Part shown: positions 11,120 to 64,000 of the stretch, piece after piece
Layout: each line of letters starts with the position of its first letter
Position numbering within the stretch: position 1 is the first letter of the stretch
IMG/VR virus record: IMGVR_UViG_3300017917_002560
Span: 74,096 to 138,095 of that record
DNA: 64,000 bases
Direction: 5' to 3' (one strand)
From: a virus
Taxonomy: Duplodnaviria; Heunggongvirae; Uroviricota; Caudoviricetes
Made by a program: the position numbers and the translations under genes
The notes under the pieces: model-generated
What the model was told of the DNA's origin: nothing
The model's input: only the letters and a program-made list of their open reading frames with translations
The model's database searches: none

Positions 11120-11120
11120 C

Positions 11121-48261: not shown

Positions 48262-48508
48262 TATCGGTCCATTTTTTAGTTTGGTCAAATCGTCGTTCTT
48301 GCATGGTGCGCTCTTTAAAGAATTTTCTAGGGTTGCCACACATTGCGCAATTTGAATCACCACATGTAGTGGCATGAATTTTACTTAGCCTATGTTCTGG
48401 GCCAGTGGGAAATCCGTGTGCTTTGGCAATACGTTTTTGCTTTTTTATTGCGGCTTCCTCGCGAAGAAGTCGGCGGCTGTGTTTAAAACGTTCAACTTGA
48501 TTGCTCAT
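48254..48508 (-). CDS. Hypothetical basic protein with [14 protein letters not shown] Cys cluster
   Basis: ORF downstream of promoter 48529. Confidence 0.45.
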
Positions 48509-51609: not shown

Positions 51610-51691
51610 GCTGTTTTGGTGCTCCCAACTGGTAACGATCCAGTGTTTCTACATTACCAATGTAGTGTAATACCTTTATACTATGAGAGCG

Positions 51692-53251
51692 TTAGGTCAA
51701 ATTTAATTGTGAATACAATGCCTGTTTGTATTCCTGAATTTTTTTCTCTTTTTTTAGAGTAACACTGTGCCAATCAAATGTACTGACTGATTGATTTATA
51801 ACAGTCTTGGGATCAATGCCTAGGCTACTCATGTACAGTACATCATTGCTTCTTACTTTTAACAAATCTCGTTTTATACTTTCTTGATGGTTCTGACTTG
51901 CTAACATTTTACACTCGTCAAAAGAAGTTAGATCGTTTTCCCATACCAATGACTTGAGCTCGTTGTCAAAGCCAGTTATCCTGTATCCGTATTTTTTGTA
52001 ATTTTTGTCAATGTCACTGCTGAATATCGCAGTTTTAGAAGACCTAATTATCAAGGGATGACAATACCAAACATCAAGTCCAGTTTCGTTATTAACAAGC
52101 TGTTCGTGAGTTTGTTTTATACTGTTGACATCTTCGTAAGGAAGCCCAAAAATAAATCCAGCATGCAACGTTACTGAATTACCGTATTGGTTTTTAATTT
52201 TTTTAACAGTTGCAATTAACTTTTCTCGACTACCGCCCTTGCCAATAAACGACCCAGCTTGTTTGTTAAACGTTTCAATGCCAAAGAAGTTTGCAATACA
52301 TCCGCTACCATACAAAAGATTTATGGTTTCAGGATCAGCAGCCAATAAATCTAGTCTAACATAAGCCCAATATTCTAACTTAAATGGTAGCTTTTTTGAT
52401 ATGTCGTAAATGGCTTGTAGTTTTTCCTTTGAGTCGTTAAATGTGTCGTCAGTAAACACATAACGTGTGGTTCCAAAGCGTTCGTAGTTGTCAATTAGTT
52501 CTGCATACAACACATCTGTGTGTTTGATGTAGTCATTTTTTTCTTGCCGTTTAACGGAAATGAACAGAACTTGCATTGAAAAATACAGCCGCGCCCAATT
52601 TCAATTGGAAGAGTTTCGTTGGGCAACACAATATCGTGTTCATGATATTTCATTTGTGTCCCAACAAAGTCGTAGCCTTTTGCAGTGGGGTCATCAATTA
52701 CAGTAAATTTAAACACACTCTTTCTACTGTTATTAAGAGCATCTCCAAATGCCAGGTGCCGTGCCAAATTGACAGCAGATATATCAGCTAGGCCCTGCAC
52801 AACATAATCGTAATCTGAATTGAAGTCAATGTCTTCTGCATCCGGTCCGCCTAGTACAATTTTACAATTAGGCGATATAGAACGAATCAGTTGTTTGATA
52901 ACTGTATTATATTTTTTTCCGTGGGGCAAAAAAGAACCGGATTCTTTAGGAGAGAATTTTATGCCGCCTTTTTCCCAGTGATTTTCGGCATTGTCAATTA
53001 TTTGTGCGTTATCTACTCCTTGATAAAAAATTGAATTGAATCCAATATACAAGGTTTTATCACTCACAGCAGAATTAAGTATTTGGATAATCTCTTCTAT
53101 AGAAAAAATATGTAAATGGTTGATCACCAACACTTCAAATCCTTCATTGCGCAGAGAATCAGCGACCTTGGTGACTCCCAATAGCCGTTGCAAAAACAGC
53201 GGATGACTGTAATCGGTCATCAGGATGATATTGTGCTTGGTTTTATCAAAC
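51692..53251 (-). CDS. Cobalamin-binding radical SAM protein, apparently split by a frameshift near 52495-52576
   Basis: Upstream ORF (52495..53251/53280) has B12-binding-like N-terminus and IGRGCIFQCKFCSF (CxxxCxxC); downstream ORF (51692..52576) continues rSAM fold; frames overlap 82 nt around an A/T homopolymer. Confidence 0.5.
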
Positions 53252-53296
53252 ATGTTAATATGTATATGCGTTTGAATCAAAAAAAATATTTATTGT

Positions 53297-53378
53297 TGGT
53301 ACCCCTGCTCGGATTCGAACCGAGAAACCGCGGCACACCTTTTGAGAGTGCTGACTTTACCAATTTGTCCACAGGGGC
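53297..53378 (-). tRNA. tRNA-Leu(CAA)-like, long variable arm, CCA encoded
   Basis: Hand fold: T arm ctcgg/attcgaa/ccgag, anticodon loop cucaaaa, acceptor 6 WC+1 GU. Confidence 0.5.
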
Positions 53379-53379
53379 G

Positions 53380-53453
53380 TGGTGGGTTCGACAAGAATTG
53401 AACTTGTGTCTTTGCCATGTCAAAGCAACGTTCTACCATTGAACTACGAACCC
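53380..53453 (-). tRNA. tRNA-Val(GAC)
   Basis: T loop uucaauu, anticodon loop uugacau, perfect acceptor. Confidence 0.55.
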
Positions 53454-53459
53454 AATGAG

Positions 53460-53537
53460 TGGTCGGAATAGCAAGATTCGAACTTGCGACCCCTGGTCCC
53501 CCAGACCAGTGCGCTAACCAGACTGCGCTATACTCCG
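53460..53537 (-). tRNA. tRNA-Pro(GGG)
   Basis: Anticodon arm ctggt/cccccag/accag, D stem gcgc. Confidence 0.55.
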
Positions 53538-53622
53538 TTATATGGCAGGCCCTTCAGGAATTGAACCTTCGACTCCGGCGGTTGGAATGCCGAGAGATCT
53601 GCCAGAGTGAGCCCATAAAACT

Positions 53623-53820
53623 TTATCGACGTTTGCGCCAAGTGTATTCTACACCGTCAGGGCACACACCGTCCTTGATACTATCGGCACCAAAGTGCCC
53701 TACAATTTCCATTCCGTTACCACGAATGGTAACAAAACAATCTAAAACTTTAGCTAGATCCATTGCGGCTTGTAAATCTATTACTTCGGTTTCTTTTTCG
53801 CCGCATACAACACAATACAT
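53623..53820 (-). CDS. Hypothetical small protein (65 aa) within tRNA island
   Basis: ORF between tRNA groups. Confidence 0.35.
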   Translation of the reverse strand: MYCVVCGEKETEVIDLQAAMDLAKVLDCFVTIRGNGMEIVGHFGADSIKDGVCPDGVEYTWRKRR

Positions 53821-54057
53821 TTATTTTTCTTCGTCTCTCTTCAACAACAATGAATTTGCAAACAATCCGGTTTCGCCAGGGCGTGTAGCTGTAAACTATC
53901 GACACAGGGTAGAGCTTACTTCATCCTGCAATAGATAATCCTTGACACCGGAAACAGTCCGGGACCTCTCATCCCAGCAACTGATCCATAGAAGATGCGC
54001 ATTACTGCACAGAGCCTCAAGGGGTATTGCCCCTGCACGAGTCCTTGCTTGCAAAAC

Positions 54058-54140
54058 TGGTGCCCAGGGAGGGACTCGAACCCTCACGGTTTCCCGCCGG
54101 ATTTTGAGTCCGGTGCGTCTACCTATTCCGCCACCTGGGC
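54058..54140 (-). tRNA. tRNA-Leu(CAA), class II
   Basis: Perfect anticodon stem ccgga/tccgg with loop cucaaaa; 11-nt variable arm cgg-gaaa-ccg. Confidence 0.6.
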
Positions 54141-54144
54141 AATT

Positions 54145-54219
54145 TGGTGGGCCCACTAGGAATTGAACCTAGACTCAAGCGATTATGAGTCGCCTGCTTT
54201 ACCATTAAGCTATAGGCCC
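54145..54219 (-). tRNA. tRNA-Met or Ile2 (CAU)
   Basis: Anticodon loop cucauaa; 1-72 paired so elongator-type. Confidence 0.55.
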
Positions 54220-54226
54220 AAAACTT

Positions 54227-54478
54227 TTATTTCTTTGCATCCATTCCGTCTAACACCCAGACTTGAATTGCGTCTAGCTTGTTGGGAGATTCAAATACTT
54301 CTGGGCATTTATGAGCCACTCGATCCAAGTCCCAAGAACCTGGATAATGACGCAACACTGCCAGGGCACGTTGTCGAACAACTTTGGGAACCCGCGGCGT
54401 CTTGGCGGGATTGCAAAGGTCCATCAAGAACTGCTCTGCTGACCTTACTGCTCGATAACGTTCGTCCGGTAGTGTCAT
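54227..54478 (-). CDS. Hypothetical protein (83 aa)
   Basis: ORF downstream of promoter 54506. Confidence 0.45.
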   Translation of the reverse strand: MTLPDERYRAVRSAEQFLMDLCNPAKTPRVPKVVRQRALAVLRHYPGSWDLDRVAHKCPEVFESPNKLDAIQVWVLDGMDAKK

Positions 54479-54505
54479 GATCCTTGCTCTTTAAACTATA
54501 GATGT

Positions 54506-54534
54506 ATTATAGCAATCTAGTATTTAATTGTCAA
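54506..54534 (-). promoter_or_regulatory. Early sigma70 consensus promoter TTGACA-17-TATAAT
   Basis: ctggTTGACAattaaatactagattgcTATAATac. Confidence 0.6.
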
Positions 54535-54659
54535 CCAGTGCTGTGCTTCTTGCTTGTGGGTCAGTATGCATTTTCTAAAAAAGAATCGCTGTAAAACGTT
54601 CTGTTGGTGAAAAATGCATACTTTGGTTTACCTTTTCTGCAAACAACAGTATTACCTTT

Positions 54660-54736
54660 TGGTACCCTGGACGGGACTCGAACCCGTAGAACCTGCGACC
54701 TCAACGCAGTGTGTCTGCCAATTCCACCACCGGGGC
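54660..54736 (-). tRNA. tRNA with anticodon GAG (Leu-type) but class I (short variable arm) shape
   Basis: Perfect anticodon stem ctgcg/cgcag, loop uugaggu; acceptor has one C-A mismatch. Confidence 0.45.
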
Positions 54737-55078
54737 TTATAACCAATACTCTCGACGTGGCTTGCTTTCAATCATGACCTCATGGTCGGGATCACGCTGG
54801 TAACGATGCAGTTCTCGACGTGCTCGCACTTTGTACGGCTTTTGTGAGAACTCGCGATGAAACCAACTGGGCCCACGGTAGTTCATCCAGTGATCTTTTT
54901 TGTCACTGTGGAACTCGGCTAGCTTTTTACGACCTTCTTTACTGTGCGCATCGATTCGCTGATACGCCCAGCGATATGGAGCAGTACGAACTAGCTCTCT
55001 CAACACGTCAGCTTCAAGCCAACGATGTTTCTTAAAACGATATGTACGACTCATCTTTCCTCCTATTGTGATAGTCAC
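54737..55078 (-). CDS. Hypothetical basic protein (113 aa)
   Basis: ORF ending exactly at tRNA 5' end. Confidence 0.45.
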   Translation of the reverse strand: MTITIGGKMSRTYRFKKHRWLEADVLRELVRTAPYRWAYQRIDAHSKEGRKKLAEFHSDKKDHWMNYRGPSWFHREFSQKPYKVRARRELHRYQRDPDHEVMIESKPRREYWL

Positions 55079-55119
55079 AATCGGTGGAAAGTCCTTTTGT
55101 TTTTCTTGATATACATGTT

Positions 55120-55494
55120 TTACCTTACTGCTCGTGCTCGAGCATCAATTACATCATTCATGTCGCATTTGACAACGACATTAGTGTATGTATCAACAAA
55201 TCCGCTGGCATGATCTGTTACGCGGTTGTCGGGTTCGTGATATGTTCTAATACGTTCCTGCCCAGCAAGATACCGTTGTGTATCTTCGTGAAAGTGGGCC
55301 TGCACTCTGCTCAAACAAGTAATGTATGCCGCACGTCGATTGTCTTCTCGACTGCGACTGTTAGTACCATTGGCTTGAATGCCAGTGGGCTCGTGTATGC
55401 AACGGCAACAGTTTTGATGCTTGTTGCGATGCTGTCCGCCTTTTCCTGTGCCCGAGAACCACTCAAAGCGGAATTGGTCTTCTGTGATTTTCAT
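55120..55494 (-). CDS. RF-1/ArfB-like GGQ-domain peptidyl-tRNA hydrolase
   Basis: SGTGKGGQHRNKHQNCCRCIHEPTGI matches class I release factor/ArfB GGQ domain (SGxGGQHVNK...HxPTGI). Confidence 0.65.
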   Translation of the reverse strand: MKITEDQFRFEWFSGTGKGGQHRNKHQNCCRCIHEPTGIQANGTNSRSREDNRRAAYITCLSRVQAHFHEDTQRYLAGQERIRTYHEPDNRVTDHASGFVDTYTNVVVKCDMNDVIDARARAVR

Positions 55495-55502
55495 GGCATT
55501 CC

Positions 55503-55883
55503 TTACAGTAGTGGTAGAGTGCCTGTAACAGCGTCTACGCGGTCTTCACGGTCTGGGCCAACAGCAACGGCGGTATAGGTTTTTACACCACCAAACTCTG
55601 TGAGCCCAGCGTCTTGGATTAAGCTAGCAACAAGTCCTGCCGCTAGTGCCTGATTGTGTATGGCCAACAGCTCTTGTTCACTGTTGACATATACACAGAT
55701 TTTTTTAAAACGTCCTGTAAGCCAAGGGCGCACACGATCGTCCATTTTTAATTCCAGCATGTCATTCTTTACTTGACACAGACCTAGGATAGCACCCATG
55801 GAGGCATGAGCACCTTGTGCTACCATTTTGCCTTTGCGCATGTTTAAATCTTTGCGTAACACTATGACTTGTTTGTGTTCCAT
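55503..55883 (-). CDS. PTH2-family peptidyl-tRNA hydrolase
   Basis: KQVIVLRKDLNMRKGKMVAQGAHAS resembles PTH2 N-terminal block. Confidence 0.65.
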   Translation of the reverse strand: MEHKQVIVLRKDLNMRKGKMVAQGAHASMGAILGLCQVKNDMLELKMDDRVRPWLTGRFKKICVYVNSEQELLAIHNQALAAGLVASLIQDAGLTEFGGVKTYTAVAVGPDREDRVDAVTGTLPLL

Positions 55884-55897
55884 GTGTGTCTCCTTGT

Positions 55898-55973
55898 TGG
55901 TGCCGCCCCCAGGGATCGAACCTGGTTCCTCGGTGCTTCAAACCGGTGCTATGACCACATCAGCTAAAGCGGC
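55898..55973 (-). tRNA. tRNA-Phe(GAA)
   Basis: Anticodon loop uugaagc. Confidence 0.55.
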
Positions 55974-55978
55974 ATGTT

Positions 55979-56053
55979 TGGTACATCCTCACGGTTTCGA
56001 ACCGCGGACCCTTTCCGTGTAAAGGAAACGCTCTACCCCTGAGCTAAGGATGC
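55979..56053 (-). tRNA. tRNA-Val(UAC)
   Basis: Anticodon arm tttcc/gtgtaaa/ggaaa. Confidence 0.6.
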
Positions 56054-56058
56054 GTTAA

Positions 56059-56150
56059 TGGTACTCCCGGGGAGAGTCGAACTCCCATTAGCGGCTTATC
56101 TAGCACTTACCCGTTATAAGCGGGCCGTTTTACCATTAAACTACGGGAGC
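56059..56150 (-). tRNA. Class II tRNA (89 nt) with apparent anticodon UAU; isotype unclear
   Basis: Good acceptor, D arm gttt/taccatt/aaac, T arm; 22-nt variable region; anticodon loop cuuauaa. Confidence 0.4.
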
Positions 56151-56158
56151 CTTGTTGT

Positions 56159-56234
56159 TGGTTGCGGGGCTTGGATTTGAACCAAGGATGGCAAAGGCTT
56201 ATGAGACCTCGCTGGTGACCGGACCCTCCCCGCG
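56159..56234 (-). tRNA. Initiator tRNA-fMet(CAU)
   Basis: 5' CGCGGGG with C1·A72 mismatch, T loop UUCAAAU, anticodon loop cucauaa, as in bacterial tRNAfMet. Confidence 0.65.
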
Positions 56235-56241
56235 CCAGTTG

Positions 56242-56808
56242 TTACAGTAGGCCCACTTCCTTGAGTGAACTTACTATGTCTTCGGTCAACTCAATTTCTG
56301 TGCGAACATTGAGTTCAAGAATTTCGTCGTTGAGCTTTTGTTTTTGCTTCTTGAGGTGCAGTACTAGAGCCTTGAATGTGTCAATTTGTTCTTGACGCAG
56401 TACACCAGTGTTCACAGTGTCACCGTAGCCGTAAATGCGGCTCTTGGCTTCAACATTGCGAAGCTTTTCCAGCTTGCCGTTGATGAGACCCAGTGCTTCT
56501 TGCACATCGGCCTTGGCTAGCTCAGTCATGTGACCAATGCGCTTGTCCAAGTAGGCGCATTCAGCCAACTTGTCTGTGACACCGCACTGTGCATTGGCCA
56601 TGCCAATCATGCTACGAATGCGATACAAGATACGTGTGAGTCGGTCACGTTGGTCGTCACGTGCCACCAACTGAGTGTTGAGAGCAAACAACACCACTTC
56701 TGCGTCCTCAAACTCGTTGAGTGTAGCAGTGGATTTGATTTCAATACCACGGATGAACTCTTGGATTACAGTTTGCAGGGCATTGGCTTTACGCAGAGTG
56801 ATTTTCAT
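56242..56808 (-). CDS. Hypothetical coiled-coil protein (188 aa)
   Basis: ORF downstream of promoter 56829. Confidence 0.5.
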   Translation of the reverse strand: MKITLRKANALQTVIQEFIRGIEIKSTATLNEFEDAEVVLFALNTQLVARDDQRDRLTRILYRIRSMIGMANAQCGVTDKLAECAYLDKRIGHMTELAKADVQEALGLINGKLEKLRNVEAKSRIYGYGDTVNTGVLRQEQIDTFKALVLHLKKQKQKLNDEILELNVRTEIELTEDIVSSLKEVGLL

Positions 56809-56828
56809 TTTGAATTCCTTAAAAAATA

Positions 56829-56857
56829 ATTATATGCTGAATCAATGTGTTAGTCAA
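56829..56857 (-). promoter_or_regulatory. Early sigma70-like promoter TTGACT-17-TATAAT
   Basis: ttgTTGACTaacacattgattcagcaTATAATtatt. Confidence 0.55.
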
Positions 56858-57142
56858 CAAAAAACGGATAAAGAAACGGCAAGTAAATAGCCGGACAACA
56901 TGCAACAGTCAATCGCCCCAGAACACTAATCTCGAGCTAACAACTATCAAAAAACAGAGGACTCAATATCTCCAAGGATCAACAAACAGGGCTATTACGC
57001 CGGACTACCTTGGATCTCTGAGTCACGGAGGCTGTGCAAGCCAATTGTCAGTAATTCCATTTTCACATGGATTACCGTTTTGCTACTCCTCATCTCCGCT
57101 TCTTCAACCGGTTGGTTTTGCAAAAACCAACAAAACAAAACT

Positions 57143-57217
57143 TGGCTCCCCAGCGTGGGCTCGAACCACGGACCAAAGGATTAACAGTCCTCTACTCTAC
57201 CTCTGAGCTACTAGGGA
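57143..57217 (-). tRNA. tRNA-Asn(GUU)
   Basis: Anticodon loop cuguuaa, acceptor 6 WC+1 GU, G73. Confidence 0.65.
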
Positions 57218-57241
57218 ATGGGTTAACACAGTATTTGTCCT

Positions 57242-57270
57242 ATTATACTCCCTGTGTTATGGAGAGTCAA
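57242..57270 (-). promoter_or_regulatory. Early sigma70-like promoter TTGACT-17-TATAAT driving tRNA-Asn
   Basis: TTGACTctccataacacagggagTATAATagg. Confidence 0.55.
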
Positions 57271-57276
57271 CTGTTA

Positions 57277-57708
57277 TTATAAAAAAGCGTACTCGTAATT
57301 GACCGATTCTTCGTTGTCGCTCAGCACAGTTGCGCCGTTTTTCAAGTGGAATCGTCGAGCCATTTCGGTCTTGGGACTCAAGGTCACAAAACGTGTGATT
57401 TCAGGAAACTGTCTACGTATCTCTTCTACAGTGGCACGTAACAGTTCTGCGCCGGCACCAGGAGCATAACTCCATATGGTGTAGAAAACCGCAGTGTTAG
57501 GGTTCTCTGCGTCACCTAAGTCGCTGACTCGAGTAGGAACTCGATCCAGCAGGTTCACGCAGACCATGGCACGTGGGCGGTCTTCAACTAGAGCACTGAC
57601 AAATCGATTCTTACCAACCCTGAACTCTCTAGAGATTTCTGGTCTAACAGGATCATCTTTGACGTACTCCAGTAGTGGATCTAGTGGGTTCGCTACAAAC
57701 GTCAACAT
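57277..57708 (-). CDS. Hypothetical protein (143 aa)
   Basis: ORF. Confidence 0.45.
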   Translation of the reverse strand: MLTFVANPLDPLLEYVKDDPVRPEISREFRVGKNRFVSALVEDRPRAMVCVNLLDRVPTRVSDLGDAENPNTAVFYTIWSYAPGAGAELLRATVEEIRRQFPEITRFVTLSPKTEMARRFHLKNGATVLSDNEESVNYEYAFL

Positions 57709-57761
57709 AATATTTGTATATATCTCAGATGCTGAATTTTTGTATTACAGCAATATTACAA

Positions 57762-57837
57762 TGGAGCGGGTAGCGAGATTCGAACTCGTCTCTTGAGGTT
57801 TGGAAGACCGCCGTGCAACCGTAAACACTTTACCCGC
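57762..57837 (-). tRNA. tRNA-Gly(UCC)
   Basis: Anticodon loop cuuccaa, U73 discriminator, perfect acceptor gcgggta/tacccgc. Confidence 0.6.
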
Positions 57838-58131
57838 ATCTTAGTGAAACACTCTAAAGGTTTTCTTCCCGGGACCCAGATCCACCTTAAACTGGTCGAT
57901 GTTTTGTAGAATGTTTCATTAAGATGTTTAGCTACTCTCACCACAAGAGCCCTAAACTGGGTGGTTACCCCGTCCACGTTCTTTTCCATTTAGACGGGCA
58001 ATCGTCCCCGCCTTTGTGATTTCTCAAGTCGCCCATGTAAGCGGGCCTTGCAGTAGATCCAATGCACTGTGTCTTTTATGGTACAGACAATTGACCCCCG
58101 TTTACTAACGGCTACGGGATGCCGGGTTGTT

Positions 58132-58215
58132 TGGTGCCCCAGGGGAGACTCGAACTCCCACGCCTTTCGACAATGGCTTCTAAGACCATCGTGTCTACCA
58201 TTCCACCACCAGGGC
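58132..58215 (-). tRNA. tRNA-Leu(UAG), class II
   Basis: Anticodon loop cuuagaa, 13-nt variable region. Confidence 0.55.
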
Positions 58216-58239
58216 ATTTGTTATATTATAACAAACTCA

Positions 58240-58713
58240 TCAAGCATTTGCAACCTTTAATCCACGCATACGGTCAGCGGCATAGCTTGCGGCAAATGCG
58301 TCGGGCTTGACCATGGGAATAATGTTGCAAGTGCCTCGAATGTAACCAATGGCTTGTGCAATGACATTTGAACTCTTGTGCATATCGTTGGGGTTTAAGT
58401 CCAAATGCACTTCAACATGTCGTCCTTCAAGGACATCGGCTAATTTTAGATACAGTTCGCTGACTTTGTAAACTTCAGTCATCAAACGTGTGTTGGGTTT
58501 GTCAACTCGATCGTAATCGCGTTCTTTGGTAATCTCACCAAACAGTTTGCAACCATTGTTACCATTGACGTGAACAACGATGGCGGCTGTGTAGTAGGCC
58601 CAAAACTCTCCTCCGATCTTTACACGTTCGCTATCGCAACCAAGATACACACGAGTATCTGGGCTTTGTGCTAGAATAAATTCACGCACTACATCAATGT
58701 CAAACTTCTTCAT
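58240..58713 (-). CDS. Hypothetical protein (start MKKFDIDV)
   Basis: ORF between tRNAs; longer N-terminus to 58767 unlikely. Confidence 0.45.
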   Translation of the reverse strand: MKKFDIDVVREFILAQSPDTRVYLGCDSERVKIGGEFWAYYTAAIVVHVNGNNGCKLFGEITKERDYDRVDKPNTRLMTEVYKVSELYLKLADVLEGRHVEVHLDLNPNDMHKSSNVIAQAIGYIRGTCNIIPMVKPDAFAASYAADRMRGLKVANA

Positions 58714-58734
58714 GATTACCTCTCGTAAAAATCT

Positions 58735-58808
58735 TGGCATCCCACCAGGGACTCGAACCCCGACCAACGGTTTTGGAGACCGCTATGCTGCCATTACACC
58801 AGCGAGAT
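58735..58808 (-). tRNA. tRNA-Trp(CCA)
   Basis: Anticodon loop cuccaaa, D arm gugu/aauggca/gcau. Confidence 0.6.
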
Positions 58809-58820
58809 ATTTTGTATATA

Positions 58821-58894
58821 TGGTAGCCAGTACAGGTAACGATCCTGTGTCGCACGATTATCAGTCGTGTGCTCTACCTTTGAGCTAACCGGCT
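58821..58894 (-). tRNA. tRNA-Ile(GAU) with unusual T loop AUCGUUA
   Basis: Perfect anticodon stem cacga/tcgtg, loop cugauaa. Confidence 0.6.
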
Positions 58895-58930
58895 ATGAAT
58901 TTTTGTGCAAGTTTTTAAAGAACAGCTTGT

Positions 58931-58959
58931 ATTATACAAGAATGTTGCTTTATGGTCAA
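58931..58959 (-). promoter_or_regulatory. Early sigma70-like promoter TTGACC-17-TATAAT driving tRNA-Ile block
   Basis: TTGACCataaagcaacattcttgTATAATac. Confidence 0.55.
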
Positions 58960-58962
58960 GCT

Positions 58963-59037
58963 TGGTGGTAAAGGTGAGATTCGAACTCACACCGGGCACC
59001 GTATGAAGGTGTTGCACAACCATTATGCTACTTTACC
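58963..59037 (-). tRNA. tRNA-Met or Ile2 (CAU), second elongator-type copy
   Basis: Anticodon loop uucauac, perfect acceptor ggtaaag/ctttacc. Confidence 0.55.
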
Positions 59038-59160
59038 ATATAAAAACATTTTCAATTTCAGTTCAATGCTGGCACAAAGAACCTTTCGCCACTGCCAGGT
59101 GACCGAAGAGATTACTCGCTCTAATTGCGAGGTCTGTCCGTCAAAAATGTTTTTATATGG
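59036..59160. repeat. 17-bp perfect inverted repeat (ccatataaaaacatttt / aaaatgtttttatatgg) enclosing a 91-nt hairpin-rich spacer between two tRNAs
   Basis: Arms 59036-59052 and 59144-59160; right arm includes CCA of tRNA-Lys, left arm abuts 5' end of tRNA(CAU). Confidence 0.7.
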
Positions 59161-59235
59161 TAGGAGCACTGGGATTCGAACCCAGACCTGGCGGATTAAA
59201 AGTCCGCTGTGCTAAACCGTTGACACTATACTCCC
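59158..59235 (-). tRNA. tRNA-Lys(UUU)
   Basis: Perfect anticodon stem gcgga/tccgc, loop cuuuuaa. Confidence 0.65.
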
Positions 59236-59365
59236 GTTTGTCTTTCATCTTACTATCGCGTCTTAGAGCTTTGTTGCTCTTGCGGTGCGAGCCCGCCTTC
59301 CGTTTGCTTGCCAGTACGGCAAATATGTTACGAGGTTTCACTTCGTTTCTCCTTAAAAAATAAAT

Positions 59366-59444
59366 TGGTCCGAGTAGAAGGATTCGAACCTTCGATCTCC
59401 TGCTCCCAAAGCAGGCGGATTAAACCAGACTTTCCTACACTCGG
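59366..59444 (-). tRNA. tRNA-Pro(UGG)
   Basis: Perfect anticodon stem cctgc/gcagg, loop uuuggga. Confidence 0.6.
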
Positions 59445-59450
59445 ATATTA

Positions 59451-59525
59451 TGGTGGACCGTACCGGGATCGAACCGGTCCTTAAGGCTTGCAAAGCCCTC
59501 GTGCCCCCAACAACACTTACAGCCC
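59451..59525 (-). tRNA. tRNA-Ala(UGC)
   Basis: Anticodon loop uuugcaa; G3:U70 wobble present. Confidence 0.65.
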
Positions 59526-59540
59526 ATAATACTAACTAAC

Positions 59541-59615
59541 TGGCCCGGCGTAAGGGAATCGAACCCCTATTCGCACTTTAGAAGAATGCTGTCCTATCCA
59601 TTGAACGAACGCCAG
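59541..59615 (-). tRNA. tRNA-Arg(UCU)
   Basis: Anticodon loop cuucuaa. Confidence 0.55.
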
Positions 59616-59622
59616 AATAACT

Positions 59623-59698
59623 TGGGGTGTCCAACCGGTATCGATCCGGTACTACCGCTTTCACAGAGCAGTGTGCAGGCCACTACACTATGGACACC
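59623..59698 (-). tRNA. tRNA-His(GUG) with encoded G-1 and C73
   Basis: Anticodon loop cugugaa; extra 5' G opposite C73; T loop AUCGAUA. Confidence 0.65.
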
Positions 59699-59867
59699 AT
59701 TGATAAATTTGAGTAAATGCTACAGGATTCGAACCTGTACCTGCGTCCGCCTTCGCCGCTTACTAAGTCTGCAAACTTTTCGTCGGGTACTACCTTCTGC
59801 TGTGCTTGCCAGTACACCACGCAACCTGTCATAGTTCATTGCAGTGCCCTATGAGCAGTCTCAAAAT

Positions 59868-59943
59868 TGGCATCCCCACCAGGAGTCGAACCTGGGACTA
59901 GACCTTCGCAGGGTCTAATGATTTCCTATTTCACCACAGGGAT
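59868..59943 (-). tRNA. tRNA-Arg(GCG)
   Basis: Perfect anticodon stem agacc/ggtct, loop cugcgaa. Confidence 0.5.
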
Positions 59944-59950
59944 ATAAACT

Positions 59951-60027
59951 TGGCCGGCCCTGAGGGATTCGAACCCCCAACAATCAGTTTCGAAGACTGA
60001 TAGTCTATCCAATTGACGTAAAGGCCG
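59951..60027 (-). tRNA. tRNA-Arg(UCG)
   Basis: Perfect anticodon stem tcagt/actga, loop cuucgaa. Confidence 0.55.
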
Positions 60028-60087
60028 AATTGTTATAAGGTGCTCGTGTTGGCGCTTGAATCCGCGATAGCCCCTCTCTTCACGGCT

Positions 60088-60900
60088 GGTCCTTGCGCTG
60101 TCTAGAATTGGCAAGTATTTCAGTTGTTCCGCTGTAGCTACTACACAAGCAAAATTACTATTCTGAAACACACTATGCCACGCTTTGAACCTGGACTCTT
60201 AGTAATGTGTTTTAGAATAGTGCTAACGCTGAGATTACACGTTAGCCATAAGCACCTCTAGCATTATAGTCCGCCTTGCGAGCAAACCTTCTCTAGACAT
60301 CCACATAAGCCCTTGCGGTACCTACGTCTGCTTACAGCATCGCCGTTTTTAAAGACAGGCAGTAGTCTTGTCGCCATATGCTATTCTACGCTATCTACTC
60401 CGTTGACCTTGCGAGCCATTCACAGTCGCTAAACCGTTACGAAACTTCCAGCATAAACCAATTTCACCTTGCGAGCTACGTTGGACTTGATTCACTTGCG
60501 TGTCAAGTATTAGATGCTTTTCACATATGACCGAGTCAGTCTTTGCATTTTATTGTTAGAAGGAGTCGAACCTTCAGTCTATTCTTTAACAGAGAATTGG
60601 CCTACCATTAGCCTATAACGAACCTACTGCGATGTGCTGACTCAGTTGCCGCATACTCTTTTGGAATACACGATACAACACACCACGTACCTTTTGCCTC
60701 GCGAGCTACTCAGTAGTCTTTCGCGACCAATGTAACAACGTTTCGCAACGTGTCCCATCAACCACTAAAACTGCATACAAGCCCTTGGGAGCGACCCCTC
60801 GGACACGTACACTACCCTTTCTCATACCAGTTGACTGATTGGTTTGTATGGAAGTCAGCACCACCTGTTACTTTTCATTGCCCCGTGTTCCTTGCGGCAC
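60088..60900. repeat. Dispersed copies (>=8) of CCTTGCGAGC-like motif in ~1.1-kb noncoding stretch
   Basis: Copies at ~60090, 60274, 60311, 60415, 60475, 60697 (palindromic CCTCGCGAGC), 60783, 60890; irregular spacing. Confidence 0.55.
60551..60622 (-). tRNA. tRNA-Asn(GUU)-like, probable pseudogene (two acceptor mismatches, no CCA)
   Basis: Good T arm, anticodon arm attct/ttaacag/agaat, D arm; acceptor 5/7. Confidence 0.35.
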
Positions 60901-61276
60901 GTCGAACAATGTTCTTTCCTCATACATCAGCTTCGCTGTTACATCCACCGGTCTTATCAGTGAACGCTACCTCACGGTAGTGAGCAGGCTTGTCTAAACA
61001 GACCATTACTGGCGGAGTTATGTAGGCATACCTCCTTTGGCTGTGTCACCACAGTTATCTTTCATACACGGCAAGCCGTGTATAGGATGTTAAACCACCC
61101 TTGAAATCTTTTGTCTAATAGACATACTACTGCACACTCACAGGAATCGAACCTGCCAACCACACCAATGGGCGAAGCTGTTTCCGCAACATCGGCCTGC
61201 GCATTTAGCCTTTGTGTGCATGAGTATATCTACTATTTTTTAAAGAACGCTTTAGTTAATTTCTAACTAAGCATGT

Positions 61277-61305
61277 ATTGTAGCATCACATGAATAATGT
61301 GTCAA
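61277..61305 (-). promoter_or_regulatory. Early sigma70 consensus promoter TTGACA-17-TACAAT at head of tRNA/noncoding block
   Basis: gtggTTGACAcattattcatgtgatgcTACAATac. Confidence 0.55.
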
Positions 61306-61306
61306 C

Positions 61307-61382
61307 CACAAAGACCTGGTACACCGTATGGGAATCGAACCCATCTTACCAACGTGAAAGGCTGGTGTCCTAAACCGATAGA
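61307..61382 (-). tRNA. tRNA-Glu(UUC)
   Basis: Anticodon loop cuuucac. Confidence 0.55.
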
Positions 61383-61559
61383 CGAACGGTGCATTGTATA
61401 GGTTTTTGAGAGCCTAACTATCCTCCTGGGAGGACTCGCTAGATTGTCTCGAATAGTCAAGTTTAACCAACCGACTTCAGTCATACTGTAGTGTCAACAC
61501 AGTCAACCCCACTGTGCCTAGACTGGCAGGGACTCTAAACTATCGTCTATCTCAAAACT

Positions 61560-61636
61560 TGGAGCACAGGGTGGGACTCAAACCCACGAATCAACGGATT
61601 TGCAATCCGCGCCATTAGTCGCTCTGGTACCTGTGC
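61560..61636 (-). tRNA. tRNA-Cys(GCA)
   Basis: Anticodon loop uugcaaa, U73, perfect acceptor; T loop UUUGAGU (U56). Confidence 0.55.
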
Positions 61637-61642
61637 ATTGAC

Positions 61643-61717
61643 TGGAGCAGGATATCGGGTTCGAACCGATGACATTCTCGTTGGCAACGAGACATTCTAC
61701 CACTGAATTAATCCTGC
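61643..61717 (-). tRNA. tRNA-Gly(GCC)
   Basis: Perfect anticodon stem tctcg/cgaga, loop uugccaa, U73, perfect acceptor. Confidence 0.65.
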
Positions 61718-61775
61718 AAATTTTAAAAAGCCTAGGGACTCAAGTCACGTCAGGAGTGGGTATAGGCTATATTAG

Positions 61776-61850
61776 TGGTGCCCCGGGGGTGAATCGAACA
61801 CCCGACCTCGGATTACAAAACCGATGTTTTACCACTAGAACTAACGGGGC
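61776..61850 (-). tRNA. tRNA-Thr(UGU)
   Basis: Anticodon loop uuuguaa. Confidence 0.55.
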
Positions 61851-61859
61851 AAATTAACT

Positions 61860-61949
61860 TGGCCGAGAGTCAGGGAGTCGAACCCTGTCACCGTGTTTCC
61901 ACGATGTACGGATTAGCAATCCGCTGCCTTACCATCCGGCCCACTCTCG
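61860..61949 (-). tRNA. tRNA-Ser(GCU), class II
   Basis: Anticodon loop uugcuaa, G73, 20-nt variable arm with cgug/cacg stem, 3-bp D stem. Confidence 0.65.
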
Positions 61950-61956
61950 AAAGTCT

Positions 61957-61985
61957 ATTATATATGTTAGTTGAACAAGTGTCAA
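61957..61985 (-). promoter_or_regulatory. Early sigma70 consensus promoter TTGACA-17-TATAAT immediately upstream of tRNA-Ser(GCU)
   Basis: TTGACActtgttcaactaacataTATAATag. Confidence 0.55.
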
Positions 61986-61994
61986 CAATAAAAT

Positions 61995-62086
61995 TGGTGG
62001 AAGCGGTGAGATTCGAACTCACGGACCCATTTCTGAGCCGACAGTTTTCAAGACTGTTGCAATAAACCGGACTCTGCCACACTTCC
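61995..62086 (-). tRNA. tRNA-Ser(UGA), class II
   Basis: Perfect anticodon stem acagt/actgt, loop cuugaaa, 18-nt variable arm. Confidence 0.55.
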
Positions 62087-62092
62087 ATATCT

Positions 62093-62168
62093 TGGTCGGG
62101 CATCCTGGAGTCGAACCAGGTTCTCTCGGCTTAAGAGGCCGGACTTCACCACGCAAAGTTTATCCCCG
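62093..62168 (-). tRNA. tRNA-Lys(CUU)
   Basis: Anticodon loop cucuuaa; 4-bp anticodon stem. Confidence 0.5.
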
Positions 62169-62173
62169 AAATT

Positions 62174-62248
62174 TGGTGGAGACCGAGGGAGTTGAACCCT
62201 TCTAGACATTGTGCCTGCCAGGCGCAACCGTAGCCCGCTACTGCCCCC
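62174..62248 (-). tRNA. tRNA-Ala(GGC)-like, aberrant fold (possible pseudogene)
   Basis: T arm and G3:U70 acceptor present, anticodon loop cuggcag, but D arm/variable region do not fold canonically. Confidence 0.35.
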
Positions 62249-62332
62249 ATTAATGAAGCGTACTAGACTGGATCGCCCATCACCTAGTCCAGACGGTGTA
62301 CGTATATGCGAATTAGTACGCTTCATTAATGG
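62247..62332. repeat. 19-bp perfect inverted repeat (ccattaatgaagcgtacta / tagtacgcttcattaatgg) enclosing a 48-nt hairpin-forming core between two tRNA-like genes
   Basis: Arms 62247-62265 and 62314-62332; right arm contains CCA of downstream tRNA-like gene; inner gactgga/tccagac sub-hairpin. Confidence 0.7.
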
Positions 62333-62408
62333 CTCCGAGTATGAGAATCGAACTCATCTAACCATTGATTAACAGTCAAGCCCATGCACCTTGCTCGGGT
62401 TTCTCGGA
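62330..62408 (-). tRNA. tRNA-like gene with Asn-type loop (cuguuaa), degenerate D arm and acceptor
   Basis: Perfect T arm atgag/aatcgaa/ctcat; other arms poor. Confidence 0.3.
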
Positions 62409-62416
62409 ATAGAAAT

Positions 62417-62491
62417 TGGCATCCTGCACGGGTATCGATCCCGTTCCTTCACCTTGAAAGGGTGATGATCTAGCCAGTAATCTAGCAGGAT
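62417..62491 (-). tRNA. tRNA-Glu(UUC), second copy, T loop AUCGAUA
   Basis: Perfect anticodon stem tcacc/ggtga, loop cuuucaa, perfect acceptor. Confidence 0.55.
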
Positions 62492-62497
62492 AAAAAT

Positions 62498-62571
62498 TGG
62501 CACCGGTACCAGGGCTCGAACCTAGAACGACTGAGTCAAAGTCAGTTGTGTTACCATTACACCATACCGGA
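62498..62571 (-). tRNA. tRNA-Gln(UUG)
   Basis: Perfect anticodon stem actga/tcagt, loop cuuugac; 1-72 mismatch as in bacterial tRNA-Gln. Confidence 0.6.
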
Positions 62572-62799
62572 ACAGAAATGAATTTGAGAGTTGTGCCACC
62601 ATCGTTATTGGCACCATTCACCTATTTGCATAAAGCCCGGGCTAGGACTCGGTACGTTACTTGAGATTCATCCAGCCTGTGTGCCATCAGACACCCTGAT
62701 CTTCCGATCAGTCGGGCCTCGAACCCGCGACCTTTTACTATATCAGTAGTTCGAACATACCTTTATAGCGTGATTTCACTTGCTAACACTCTCAAAACT

Positions 62800-62889
62800 T
62801 GGTGGATGCGGTAGGAGTTGAACCTACACAGTCTTATTTGTATGCGGGCGGGTTACAGCCGCTTGAGCTCGCCAATGCTCAGCACATCC
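62800..62889 (-). tRNA. tRNA-Tyr(GUA), class II
   Basis: Anticodon loop cuguaac, long variable arm, D stem gagc/gctc. Confidence 0.6.
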
Positions 62890-62894
62890 ATGTT

Positions 62895-62968
62895 TGGTGC
62901 CCCATGACAGAATCGAACTGCCGTACCCGGATTACAAAACCGGTGTAATACCATTATACTAATAGGGC
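62895..62968 (-). tRNA. tRNA-Thr(UGU), second copy
   Basis: Anticodon arm ccgga/ttacaaa/accgg. Confidence 0.55.
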
Positions 62969-62973
62969 ATGTT

Positions 62974-63058
62974 TGGTGCTCCGAGCCAGAATCGAACTGG
63001 CACGCCCGAGGGCGAGAGATTTTAAGTCTCTTGTGTCTACCTATTCCACCATCGGAGC
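62974..63058 (-). tRNA. tRNA-Leu(UAA), class II
   Basis: Perfect anticodon stem agaga/tctct, loop cuuaaaa; 13-nt variable arm cgccc-ucg-gggcg; perfect acceptor. Confidence 0.65.
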
Positions 63059-63065
63059 AAAAACT

Positions 63066-63140
63066 TGGCGACTCGTGGGAGAATCGAACTCCCGTCTCCG
63101 GATAGACAATCCGGGATAATGACCATTATATGAACGAGCC
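63066..63140 (-). tRNA. tRNA with anticodon GUC (Asp-type) but unusual U37
   Basis: Perfect anticodon stem ccgga/tccgg, loop uugucua. Confidence 0.45.
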
Positions 63141-63146
63141 TAAACT

Positions 63147-63223
63147 TGGCGCACCGTAGGGGACTTGAACCCCTGGCCTCATGCGTGACAGGCATGCGAT
63201 CTAACCAACTGATCTAACGGTGC
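63147..63223 (-). tRNA. tRNA-Asp(GUC)
   Basis: Perfect anticodon stem catgc/gcatg, canonical loop cugucac, perfect acceptor. Confidence 0.65.
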
Positions 63224-63809
63224 GTAATCTTCCTTTGACCCAACCATCTGGCATAGGGTCAGTTTGTTTAATCTTGCGTTCGTGTGTGTTATTATTGATC
63301 CACATCGAACCTAAATTTACTTGCTTTGCTCGATTAGAAAGTTCTTGCTGTAAAACAGAATCTTTGAATACGCTAACTCTGCCATTTGCGTATTGCTGTT
63401 TGTTTAGAGCAGATTTTCTCTCCGATTCGGCATTGCGAAATTCTTCGTCGTTTTCAAGTCGGGATGCGTATGTTTGGCCGCCTTTGAGGTATTGCTTGGC
63501 TTTGTTGTTTTGTCCTGTTTTGTTTAGGTAATCAAAACCGCCTGAGCCACCGCGACGCAAATTATACACATCATCACGCGATAAAAAGTCTTCGGTTACA
63601 ACTTCTTTTTCACGCTTGAACATTTCATCGCTATTCTCAAAAATTTCAAGAATAGTCTTCTCAAAGTTTTCAATGCCATGCTTGTTGATAGCGGCACGTA
63701 TTACTTTACCTGAACCCATGTAACCATCATTCATGTCAGATGTTTTATGAACTCCGACATAAATTTTGCCATTCACTTTGTTTTTGATTTGATACATGTA
63801 GTAAAACAT
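63201..63809 (-). CDS. GIY-YIG homing endonuclease
   Basis: N-terminal YMYQIKNKVNGKIYVGVH...YMGSG GIY-YIG motifs; 3' end overlaps 5' part of tRNA-Asp by ~23 nt. Confidence 0.7.
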   Translation of the reverse strand: MFYYMYQIKNKVNGKIYVGVHKTSDMNDGYMGSGKVIRAAINKHGIENFEKTILEIFENSDEMFKREKEVVTEDFLSRDDVYNLRRGGSGGFDYLNKTGQNNKAKQYLKGGQTYASRLENDEEFRNAESERKSALNKQQYANGRVSVFKDSVLQQELSNRAKQVNLGSMWINNNTHERKIKQTDPMPDGWVKGRLRTVRSVG

Positions 63810-63885
63810 TTTGTTCTCCTACATTTATTTATCAAATGTGCGGCGTATATGGGTAATAGGCTGATGTGCGTCCATGAACACTTTG

Positions 63886-63969
63886 AGACCAAATTGGTGT
63901 ACGTTACGGGATTCGAACCCGCACCTCAAGGTTTTTAGGCCCTGCGTCGTGATGCCCTAACATTTTGAC
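63886..63969 (-). tRNA. tRNA-like gene (G3:U70 acceptor, class II length), isotype unresolved
   Basis: T arm acggg/attcgaa/cccgc and acceptor pair; interior not folded confidently; a further tRNA 3' end appears to begin at 63976 and runs off the window. Confidence 0.35.
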
Positions 63970-64000
63970 CAAACGCACATAATTGGTGGAGTGTAGCAGA

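Follow-up and report, generated by a model that had tools for sequence, protein, structure and literature searches.

A complete tRNA set, a PTH2-type hydrolase, a release-factor-like GGQ protein and a GOLLD RNA in one island of an uncultured giant phage

Why would a phage carry tRNAs for every amino acid together with proteins of the kind that act on peptidyl-tRNA? The question is raised by a stretch of the virus record IMGVR_UViG_3300017917_002560 (Caudoviricetes; positions 74,096 to 138,095 of that record), which at its full length of 64,000 nucleotides (nt) we call the window. Coordinates below refer to the window unless a related locus (L001, L003 and so on) is named, and features lie on the minus strand except where stated. 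The last part of the window holds a dense run of tRNA genes and, among them, a PTH2-type peptidyl-tRNA hydrolase, a 124-residue protein with a GGQ motif that we call miniRF, a GOLLD RNA and three further conserved RNAs, E1, E2 and E3. The reading that we favor, and to which we give a probability of roughly 0.65, is that these components form a translation island of an uncultured giant phage (of the ~350 kb class) that supports rescue and recycling as well as decoding. In particular, the island tRNAs would sustain phage translation in the face of a mismatched, depleted or attacked pool of host tRNAs; PTH2 would free tRNAs trapped off the ribosome as peptidyl- or N-acyl-aminoacyl-tRNA; and miniRF would hydrolyze peptidyl-tRNA on stalled ribosomes or split large subunits, with no stop codon needed.

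The window has 39 tRNAs by ARAGORN, every one on the minus strand; 38 lie within 53297-63223, and the other is an outlying tRNA-Thr(GGU) at 51617-51690 (57.7 bits with the Rfam tRNA model). Thirty-six of the 38 island calls reached the Rfam gathering score of 29 bits, with E values from 1e-14 to 5e-5; the remaining two were the initiator (23.7 bits) and the tRNA-Ala(GGC) at 62174-62248, for which there was no Rfam tRNA match. Two independent detectors therefore agree on a dense, co-oriented cluster (38 ARAGORN calls in 10 kb, 36 of which pass Rfam), and running ARAGORN with introns allowed yielded no additional tRNA. Rfam matches together with reading by hand brought out three extra tRNA-shaped genes. 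One, at 62804-62889, is a class II tRNA-Tyr(GUA) with A73 and CCA that ARAGORN missed, that scores 32 bits with the Rfam tRNA-Sec model and whose anticodon loop, CUGUAAC, we read by hand from the sequence; the second, at 62330-62408, is an Asn(GUU)-like tRNA with an aberrant D arm and CCA (ARAGORN in relaxed mode; Rfam 25.6 bits); and the third, at 63898-63978, is an odd tRNA with an expanded D loop (Rfam tRNA, 39.9 bits). An earlier reading made from the letters alone (hereafter the sequence-only reading) had folded by hand an island of about 38 tRNAs between 53297 and 64000. That number is borne out, and covariance models accept most of the hand calls (36 of 38), but the limits were drawn too tightly, the island reaching beyond both, down to 51617 at least and up to the last position of the window.

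Along the window, the ARAGORN calls of ordinary shape, with their Rfam scores in bits, begin with tRNA-Leu(CAA) copy 1 (53297-53378, 52.0), tRNA-Val(GAC) (53380-53453, 73.0), tRNA-Pro(GGG) (53460-53537, 63.2), tRNA-Leu(CAA) copy 2 (54058-54140, 62.9), an Ile2-type tRNA with the anticodon CAU (54145-54219, 72.9) and tRNA-Leu(GAG) (54660-54736, 50.2). Upstream of the two protein genes, in the direction of transcription, lie tRNA-Phe(GAA) (55898-55973, 46.9), tRNA-Val(UAC) (55979-56053, 61.0), tRNA-Asn(GUU) (57143-57217, 62.6), tRNA-Gly(UCC) (57762-57837, 40.3), tRNA-Leu(UAG) (58132-58215, 54.0), tRNA-Trp(CCA) (58735-58808, 51.8), tRNA-Ile(GAU) (58821-58894, 61.5), elongator tRNA-Met(CAU) (58963-59037, 59.9), tRNA-Lys(UUU) (59158-59235, 59.9), tRNA-Pro(UGG) (59366-59444, 62.0), tRNA-Ala(UGC) (59451-59525, 43.7), tRNA-Arg(UCU) (59541-59615, 47.5), tRNA-His(GUG) with its G-1 included (59623-59698, 52.7), tRNA-Arg(GCG) (59868-59943, 50.1) and tRNA-Arg(UCG) (59951-60027, 56.9). 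Beyond the GOLLD RNA the series continues with tRNA-Glu(UUC) copy 1 (61317-61392, 54.3), tRNA-Cys(GCA) (61560-61636, 51.3), tRNA-Gly(GCC) (61643-61717, 67.8), tRNA-Thr(UGU) copy 1 (61776-61850, 48.7), tRNA-Ser(GCU) (61860-61949, 48.2), tRNA-Ser(UGA) (61995-62086, 54.7), tRNA-Lys(CUU) (62093-62168, 31.8), tRNA-Glu(UUC) copy 2 (62417-62491, 53.2), tRNA-Gln(UUG) (62498-62571, 59.6), tRNA-Thr(UGU) copy 2 (62895-62968, 60.8), tRNA-Leu(UAA) (62974-63058, 57.8) and two copies of tRNA-Asp(GUC) (63066-63140, 52.8; 63147-63223, 69.3).

With tRNA-Tyr(GUA) counted, the set covers all 20 amino acids, and the anticodons present allow all sense codons to be read by wobble. The decoding set that had been described as near-complete thus stands as a tRNA kit and needs only to lose the word "near". 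CCA is encoded at the 3' end of every tRNA gene but one, that one being a tRNA-like domain embedded in the GOLLD RNA. There are two isoacceptors for Ser, four anticodons for Leu and three for Arg; tRNA-His(GUG) has an encoded G-1 that faces C73; and the anticodon CAU occurs in three genes, one initiator-type (56159-56234), one of the Ile2 type and thus a presumed lysidine substrate (54145-54219), and one elongator-like (58963-59037), all much as had been noticed before. The anticodon arm of the Ile2-type gene, CAGGCGACUCAUAAUCGCUUG, presumably matches that of E. coli ileX. Duplication had been claimed for five species and is evident for Glu(UUC), Thr(UGU), Leu(CAA) and Asp(GUC); Asn(GUU) is also called twice, but one of those calls is the GOLLD domain. 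The duplicated tRNAs serve the commonest codons of the phage, namely AAC, GAY, TTG, GAA and ACA, of which the last three account for 34% of the Leu, 74% of the Glu and 43% of the Thr codons, respectively.

Several members of the set depart from the canonical form. The tRNA-Ile(UAU) at 56059-56150 (ARAGORN; Rfam 62.1 bits) is 92 nt long owing to an extra hairpin in the variable arm, with the loop UAGAUAA. This arm is common to 12 copies from related loci (alignment A1; L003 7332-7422, L037 19352-19443, L052 8876-8971 and eight more), in which all three inner pairs of the arm have changed on both sides and AGAU.A of the loop is as invariant as the anticodon. The cloverleaf is paired in 92.6% of cells of the alignment, as compared with 42-55% when the 3' partners are slid by one to three columns. 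The loop consensus, YAGAUWA, reproduces G34-A35-U36-A37-A38 of the anticodon loop of tRNA-Ile(GAU), with A replacing U33. The body of the molecule is of 7/5 geometry, with A73 and a D arm of class I, and it retains C4-G69, U12-A23 and C29-G41, the pairs that specify Ile identity in E. coli. Allo-tRNAs have 8/4 or 9/3 acceptor/T geometry and G73, and nematode nev-tRNAs have a Leu-type body (PMC7609411, PMC3333845); with its 7/5 geometry, A73 and class I D arm, the gene fits neither definition. A literature search found no description of a long-arm tRNA-Ile(UAU) in phages, and the gene bears on the route by which decoders of AUA gain Ile identity.

The initiator-type tRNA-Met(CAU) at 56159-56234 (ARAGORN; Rfam 23.7 bits) has the C1.A72 mismatch and the UUCAAAU T loop that the hand folding had picked out, together with an atypical D arm and an anticodon stem in which two G-C pairs are followed by U.G. 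It is ~95% conserved in seven relatives, atypical D arm included. The tRNA-Ala(GGC) at 62174-62248, an ARAGORN call, combines G3.U70 with a D loop of 4 nt, and belongs to a family found in 29 related loci in which the D arm is kept. Because their odd arms are maintained in 7 and 29 loci, respectively, we regard both as genuine non-canonical tRNAs and not as products of decay. The gene at 63898-63978 combines a perfect acceptor stem and CCA with an 18-nt D loop and an 8-nt anticodon loop; across six relatives the D loop is almost invariant, and the anticodon loop varies in sequence and in length (7 or 8 nt).

Within the array, an open reading frame (ORF) at 55503-55883 encodes a PTH2-type peptidyl-tRNA hydrolase of 126 residues (Pfam PF01981, E 9e-31), at exactly the coordinates and on the strand where the sequence-only reading had put one. 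The protein scores 106.9 bits against a Pfam cutoff of 23 and 103.8 bits against the TIGR00283 cutoff of 82, and falls slightly short of the stricter NF003314 (110.3 bits; cutoff 126). It aligns end to end with the archaeal Pth2 structure 2ZV3 (residues 4-126), and the motifs RKDLNMRKGKMVAQGAHA and IQDAGLTEF (KGK...AQ..HA and DAG.T) match 2ZV3 in the alignment; we take these motifs to hold the catalytic residues. The product is thus a full-length Pth2. At the junction with miniRF, the TAA stop of the PTH2 gene is followed by GGAATGCC and then by ATG, leaving an 8-nt gap, and an AGGA overlaps the PTH2 stop; miniRF is probably translationally coupled to PTH2. The closest homologue of the hydrolase among isolates is that of Ralstonia phage RsoM2USA (65% identity), whose gene does not lie in a tRNA island. 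PTH2 of archaeal/eukaryotic type has been described in jumbo phages, where it was read as a means of coping with ribosomes jammed by cleaved tRNAs (PMC7824862); the enzyme here is of that same type and from a giant phage, and differs in lying within a tRNA island and in its predicted translational coupling to miniRF.

The match between duplicated tRNAs and the commonest codons fits supply meeting demand, and a complete set with conserved odd shapes fits equally well the replacement of a host pool that is degraded or attacked. Indeed, phage tRNAs have been described as a means of counter-defense (PMC10264068, PMC11555353). It is therefore possible, if somewhat short of an even chance in our estimate, that the set is mainly a spare pool for counter-defense and not a device for codon compensation, such that nuclease-resistant or odd tRNAs would outlast anticodon nucleases, nucleases of the tRNA tail and acetylating toxins, with PTH2 and miniRF clearing the ribosomes and blocked tRNAs that such an attack leaves behind. 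The completeness of the set, which goes beyond tRNAs for rare codons, is what this account would predict, as are the conserved odd shapes (the D arm of the initiator, the 4-nt D loop of tRNA-Ala, the extra arm of tRNA-Ile(UAU) and the expanded D loop at 63898-63978); it also accords with published phage tRNAs that evade tRNA-targeting defenses (PMC10264068, PMC11555353, PMC12851939) and with the interpretation given to PTH2 of jumbo phages (PMC7824862). That the duplicated tRNAs follow the commonest codons of the phage argues the other way, plain supply and demand being sufficient for that pattern. Counter-defense and codon compensation are not mutually exclusive.

The second protein, miniRF (55120-55494), has an RF-1 domain on profile search (Pfam, E 1e-14) with GGQ at residues 19-21. 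It had been described as a GGQ protein of the RF-1 or ArfB type; the domain and the motif are indeed there, and it is the ArfB part of that description that fails. In particular, miniRF aligns over its full length to residues ~193-340 of RF1, that is, to domain 3, the C-terminal strands with the IRTYxxPxNRVTDH segment and the last helix. It starts at a position equivalent to ~193-210 of RF1 and has no match to the PCRF domain, and so has neither the PxT nor the SPF loop. An AlphaFold (AF2) model (predicted local distance difference test (pLDDT) score, 72.6) reproduces the topology of RF1 domain 3, and when the model was compared with the PDB by Foldseek the first 46 hits were RF1, RF2 and mtRF1/mtRF1a, with PrfH at ranks 47 and 50. 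No ArfB or ICT1 chain is among the 50 Foldseek hits listed, none is among the 45 PDB sequence matches at E <= 1, and no ArfB model is among the NCBIfam matches of miniRF. The last 40 residues are net acidic by hand count and align to the C-terminal segment of RF1, so that there is no basic tail, and the ArfB-sized phage family phrog_3122 aligns with residues 3-60 only.

Like ArfB (YaeJ) and ICT1, miniRF is a small GGQ protein without a domain that reads stop codons, and any release by it would be independent of the codon. Unlike them, it does not have the basic C-terminal tail that occupies the empty mRNA channel, and it retains the C-terminal strands and helix of RF1, to which, with RF2, it is nearer in sequence and fold. 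Its best matches are RF1 (PrfA), PrfH and mitochondrial C12orf65, and it has in common with them the long helix, the loop that bears GGQ and the IRTYxxPxNRVTDH segment. Domains 1 and 2 of RF1, and hence the codon-reading PxT loop, are missing; the prfA models give it 62 bits, where the cutoffs are 400 and 423. PrfH itself was considered as an identity and rejected, because miniRF falls far short of the model TIGR03072 (48.1 bits; cutoff 166.65) and because no partner RtcB was seen, none being present among the called neighbors of miniRF in L001 and L003 (the whole window was not scanned for RtcB). From homology we infer, reasonably in our view, that PTH2 and miniRF represent two rescue or recycling activities, as had been proposed.

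More than 1100 homologues of miniRF were found, mostly of exactly 124 residues and 74-87% identical among the 120 best listed, and many clusters formed at 50% identity, of ~125-140 residues, match it over its full length. In 75 distinct sequences, some of them as little as 41% identical to the query, the segment GGQHRNKHQN shows no or almost no variation. At least five tRNAs lie within 10 kb of the gene in 40 of 54 close loci, and in 36 of the 54 a tRNA lies no more than 200 nt away, all of these co-oriented; miniRF therefore has its home in the tRNA islands of this clade. In L001, a 204-residue PP-loop protein (9171-9785; PF01171, of the TilS N-terminal type) lies beside a tRNA-Met(CAU) and miniRF; this TilS-like gene is missing from the window and from the other loci. 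In deposited phages, tblastn with miniRF gave matches of at most 43% identity only. Most of these were full-length RF1 or RF2 in records that resemble host contamination, and one was partial, to a protein of Tunturiibacter phage Tunturi_3 whose annotation names an RF-1 domain. The miniRF family thus appears to be confined to uncultured giant phages and absent from isolates, and a literature search found no phage mini release factor. The family is large, conserved and unstudied, and if a bare GGQ domain can find the ribosome this would extend what is known of ribosome rescue.

Several observations weigh against the rescue and recycling reading that we favor. The adjacency of PTH2 and miniRF is peculiar to the window phage; PTH2 was found within 10 kb of miniRF in 0 of 84 miniRF loci, and we therefore rejected the two as a conserved pair. 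The closest relatives of the PTH2 gene are followed by one for a different RF-like protein of 178-183 residues. This protein is an RF1 truncated at its N-terminus, in which the end of the PCRF domain remains, bearing a PxT-like VPPTE loop (L087 10518-11069, followed by an IF-1 gene at 11070-11288; L089 6116-6652); the IF-1 gene follows it in two loci, L087 and L096, and both it and the 178-183-residue protein are absent from the window. The clade thus has a second family of truncated release factors. The AF2 model of miniRF is of only moderate confidence (pLDDT 72.6), and to our knowledge a lone release factor domain 3 has no known means of binding the ribosome. No conserved protein partner stands beside miniRF in the loci examined, the flanks usually holding tRNAs only; a very basic 113-residue ORF just downstream (54737-55078; weak matches to Pfam GP63 and phrog_31697) was considered as an ArfA-like adaptor and set aside, being a neighbor of miniRF in a single locus of the 84. 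Finally, the initiator does not have the third G-C pair of the anticodon stem and scores under the Rfam threshold.

These points bear on whether miniRF is a hydrolase at all. It might instead be a decoy or modulator that alters termination in the host; it could, for instance, sit in the A site or the peptidyl-transferase center, or titrate the host enzyme that methylates the GGQ glutamine. Such a role would suit a protein without known ribosome-targeting elements (no domain 1, no domain 2, no ArfB tail), and four cysteines, C29, C30, C32 and C60, are invariant in 30 close homologues (alignment A4). Nonetheless, GGQ and its flanks are the best-conserved part of the protein down to 41% identity, a pattern that a catalytic role predicts best, and we consider a decoy unlikely. 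The cysteines may form a metal or redox site; they are not known to have a counterpart in canonical release factors. Far less probable still is that the GGQ ORF is a decaying fragment of RF1, the odd tRNAs pseudogenes and the island partly junk. The ORF does equal only the last third of RF1 and three tRNA-shaped genes score under the Rfam tRNA threshold, but the more than 1100 homologues, their 124-residue length, their many invariant residues and the diverse full-length clusters at 50% identity are hard to square with decay, and in relatives, where they are 90-95% conserved, the sub-threshold tRNAs have intact acceptor stems and CCA ends. Conservation has thus largely refuted this account already.

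Between the tRNA genes the island also carries structured RNAs, the largest of which the sequence-only reading had missed. A match to RF02032 over the full model (positions 1-416; 207.7 bits, the gathering score being 150; E 7e-58) places the conserved 3' domain of a GOLLD RNA at 60226-60686. The Rfam model covers this domain only; the 5' domain, at 60687-61112 (426 nt; nhmmer E 1e-56 to 1e-85), is conserved and directly adjoins it in 24 of 25 related loci. With six homologues, RNAalifold gives a consensus of 240 pairs, of which 103, spread over both halves, show compensatory changes. The contiguity and the covariation over both halves together define a GOLLD RNA of ~890 nt (60226-61112), in agreement with the length expected for GOLLD (PMC12286853). 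Upstream there is a promoter, TTGACA-17-TACAAT (61277-61305; promoter scan and alignment), that is conserved in the homologues, and a leader of ~100 nt that resembles a tRNA but has no CCA (61125-61225; alignment A2, RNAalifold). The leader has an acceptor stem prolonged by an outer helix, a D-like hairpin, a short anticodon-like arm, a long variable arm and a T arm, and it is present between promoter and core in five of eight homologues compared (the window phage and four relatives). The linker of the RNA contains the second "Asn(GUU)" called by ARAGORN (60551-60622; alignments A2 and A3). This domain has no CCA, only the inner four acceptor pairs are kept in homologues, and its "anticodon" varies between GUU, UCU and UUU; it is, for these reasons, not a decoding tRNA, and it could not be charged.

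GOLLD RNAs occur near tRNA islands, sometimes with a tRNA in the linker, and the GOLLD RNA env-38 forms a 14-mer cage as seen by cryo-electron microscopy (PMC12286853). The member in the window is like RF02032 and env-38 in its full 3' domain match, its separate and more variable 5' domain, its location in a phage near tRNAs and the tRNA-like insert in its linker. What sets it apart is a near-consensus sigma-70 promoter of its own, with a tRNA-like leader behind it, and an insert that has no CCA and a truncated acceptor stem. A defined unit of promoter, leader and RNA beside tRNAs and the recurrent companion E1 offers constructs with which the function of GOLLD could be tested.

Three further intervals, which had been passed over as pseudogene gaps, are filled by the conserved structured RNAs E1-E3. 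E1 (62572-62803) is a structured RNA of ~220 nt with a closing helix UUUGAGAGU/ACUCUCAAA, detected by nhmmer in 15 loci with E down to 6e-43; E2 (61393-61559) and E3 (57909-58131) are structured RNA candidates, found first in 12 and 11 loci and later in 32 and 40, respectively. Compensatory changes affect 24 of 46 predicted pairs in E1, 20 of 37 in E2 and 21 of 31 in E3, which are raw counts from small alignments of related sequences. In an island-wide scan at E <= 0.1 none of the three matched an Rfam family, and E1 rescanned alone at E <= 10 gave noise only. A 19-mer of E1 is present in at least 119 IMG/VR contigs, and in relatives E1 and GOLLD are often no more than a few hundred bases apart. 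One stretch of E1 may resemble the consensus of the RNase P specificity domain. A tmRNA reading of E1 or of the odd tRNA-Ala gene was unsupported (15.5 bits with the tmRNA model and 11.2 bits with the permuted-tmRNA model), as were readings of either as RNase P or as a Y-RNA-like RNA. Much of the material taken for pseudogenes is therefore structured RNA other than tRNA, namely GOLLD, its leader and E1-E3.

A bolder account would have these parts make up a semi-autonomous, co-evolving translation kit, comprising tRNAs shaped for escape, a phage-specific class of miniRF, and GOLLD and E1-E3 as RNAs that handle or store tRNAs or ribosomes. In such a kit the copy of the GAU loop in the arm of tRNA-Ile(UAU) may be a second identity handle, the odd initiator and tRNA-Ala may stay chargeable, and the 124-residue miniRF may represent a new phage-specific class of stop-codon-independent release factor. 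We think it doubtful that the whole of this holds; were it true, the clade would make the function of GOLLD directly testable.

That the DNA belongs to a phage, as had been assumed, is indicated by homologues of virion structural proteins in the window (PHROG matches), by a GIY-YIG homing endonuclease (Pfam and PHROG matches) and by relatives that are viral IMG/VR contigs of 340-375 kb, the longest 374 kb. The tRNA island is thus located in a phage genome, one whose G+C content is 44%. Among isolates, two proteins of the window match only the Ralstonia jumbo phage RsoM2USA (344 kb), and no close relative came up when the island was compared by megablast with 50,697 deposited phage records, the matches being of tRNA length only. 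A search with miniRF over 185,579 species genomes gave only three distant matches (41-45% identity), all in metagenome bins, and allowed no host to be assigned. Bacterial chromosomes or plasmids could in principle carry such an array, given that GOLLD-bearing tRNA arrays occur in Mycobacterium genomes, according to the reference list of PMC12286853 and to PMC6582537, and that the three distant miniRF matches sit in bins of metagenome-assembled bacterial genomes, but the virion homologues and homing endonuclease, the close relatives that are without exception viral contigs of up to 374 kb, and a jumbo phage as the sole isolate similar to two window proteins leave that origin with hardly any credibility.

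Each type of component has precedent in giant phages (PMC7162821, PMC7824862, PMC12286853). Huge phages carry large arrays of up to 67 tRNAs as well as release factors (PMC7162821), and like those arrays, and that of the isolate Xanthomonas phage XacN1, the island described here has dozens of co-oriented tRNAs interrupted by small ORFs and homing endonuclease genes; the genome in each case exceeds 300 kb and encodes translation-related proteins as well. The set in the window differs in having no close relative in the 50,697 deposited records, in covering all 20 amino acids with CCA encoded throughout, and in including several conserved non-canonical tRNAs. The value of the find lies in the uncharacterized parts: the miniRF family, the unit of promoter, leader and GOLLD with its companion RNAs, and the extra-arm tRNA-Ile(UAU). 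The island thereby provides a natural example of a phage that brings its own decoding apparatus, with a full CCA-encoding tRNA set, enzymes of recycling and release type, GOLLD and promoters of host type.

Seven sigma-70-type promoters occur in the island, with 11-12 of 12 consensus matches and 17-nt spacers, all on the minus strand. Perfect copies lie at 54506-54534 (TTGACA-17-TATAAT) and 61957-61985, and copies with 11 of 12 matches at 56829-56857, 57242-57270 and 58931-58959. Judged from these promoters, the sequence suggests that the island is transcribed by the host polymerase.

The island also contains several smaller ORFs. One of 65 residues (53623-53820) is conserved in many loci (tblastn, 44-56% identity), and in relatives its homologue lies directly upstream of PTH2 (ORF order in L087 and L089). 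A second, of 83 residues (54227-54478), belongs to the BPSL0761 family (NCBIfam NF041728, E 4e-16), and a third, of 188 residues (56242-56808), is conserved in relatives (tblastn, 34-51% identity) and had no family match in Pfam, NCBIfam and PHROG searches. A 143-residue ORF (57277-57708) resembles the C-terminal, GNAT-like domain of malonyl-CoA decarboxylase (PF05292, E 5.7e-9; 4KSA, E 1.6e-5). The gene at 58240-58713 encodes a DUF458/RNase H-like protein (PF04308, E 6.5e-16; phrog_11311, E 1e-51); the listed ORF extends to 58767, overlapping tRNA-Trp, and for that reason its likely start is the methionine of MKKFD. The DUF458 ORF is co-located with miniRF in 15 of 84 loci. Both the GNAT-like and the DUF458 ORFs recur within the tRNA islands of relatives and are candidates for modification or processing of tRNA or other RNA. 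The GIY-YIG homing endonuclease lies at 63201-63809 (PF01541; phrog_314, E 4e-41; TIGR01453), and the 3' end of its ORF as mechanically called overlaps tRNA-Asp by 23 nt.

Beside the island, a B12-binding/radical SAM gene is present as two overlapping frames (51692-52576 and 52495-53280), split at an A-run, GGCAAGAAAAAAATG; its homologue in L009 is a single ORF of 513 residues, and the split would be a frameshift, either a sequencing error or real. Elsewhere in the window, the plus strand carries at least four radical SAM/SPASM ORFs and a carbamoyltransferase between 12658 and 24364, and an S-adenosylhomocysteine hydrolase is encoded at 46972-48375 on the minus strand; together, the radical SAM cluster and the hydrolase look like a biosynthetic or modification module. 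The 40 long ORFs within 1-51188 end in TAA in 25 cases, in TGA in 14 and in TAG in one, so that TAG is almost unused as a stop codon.

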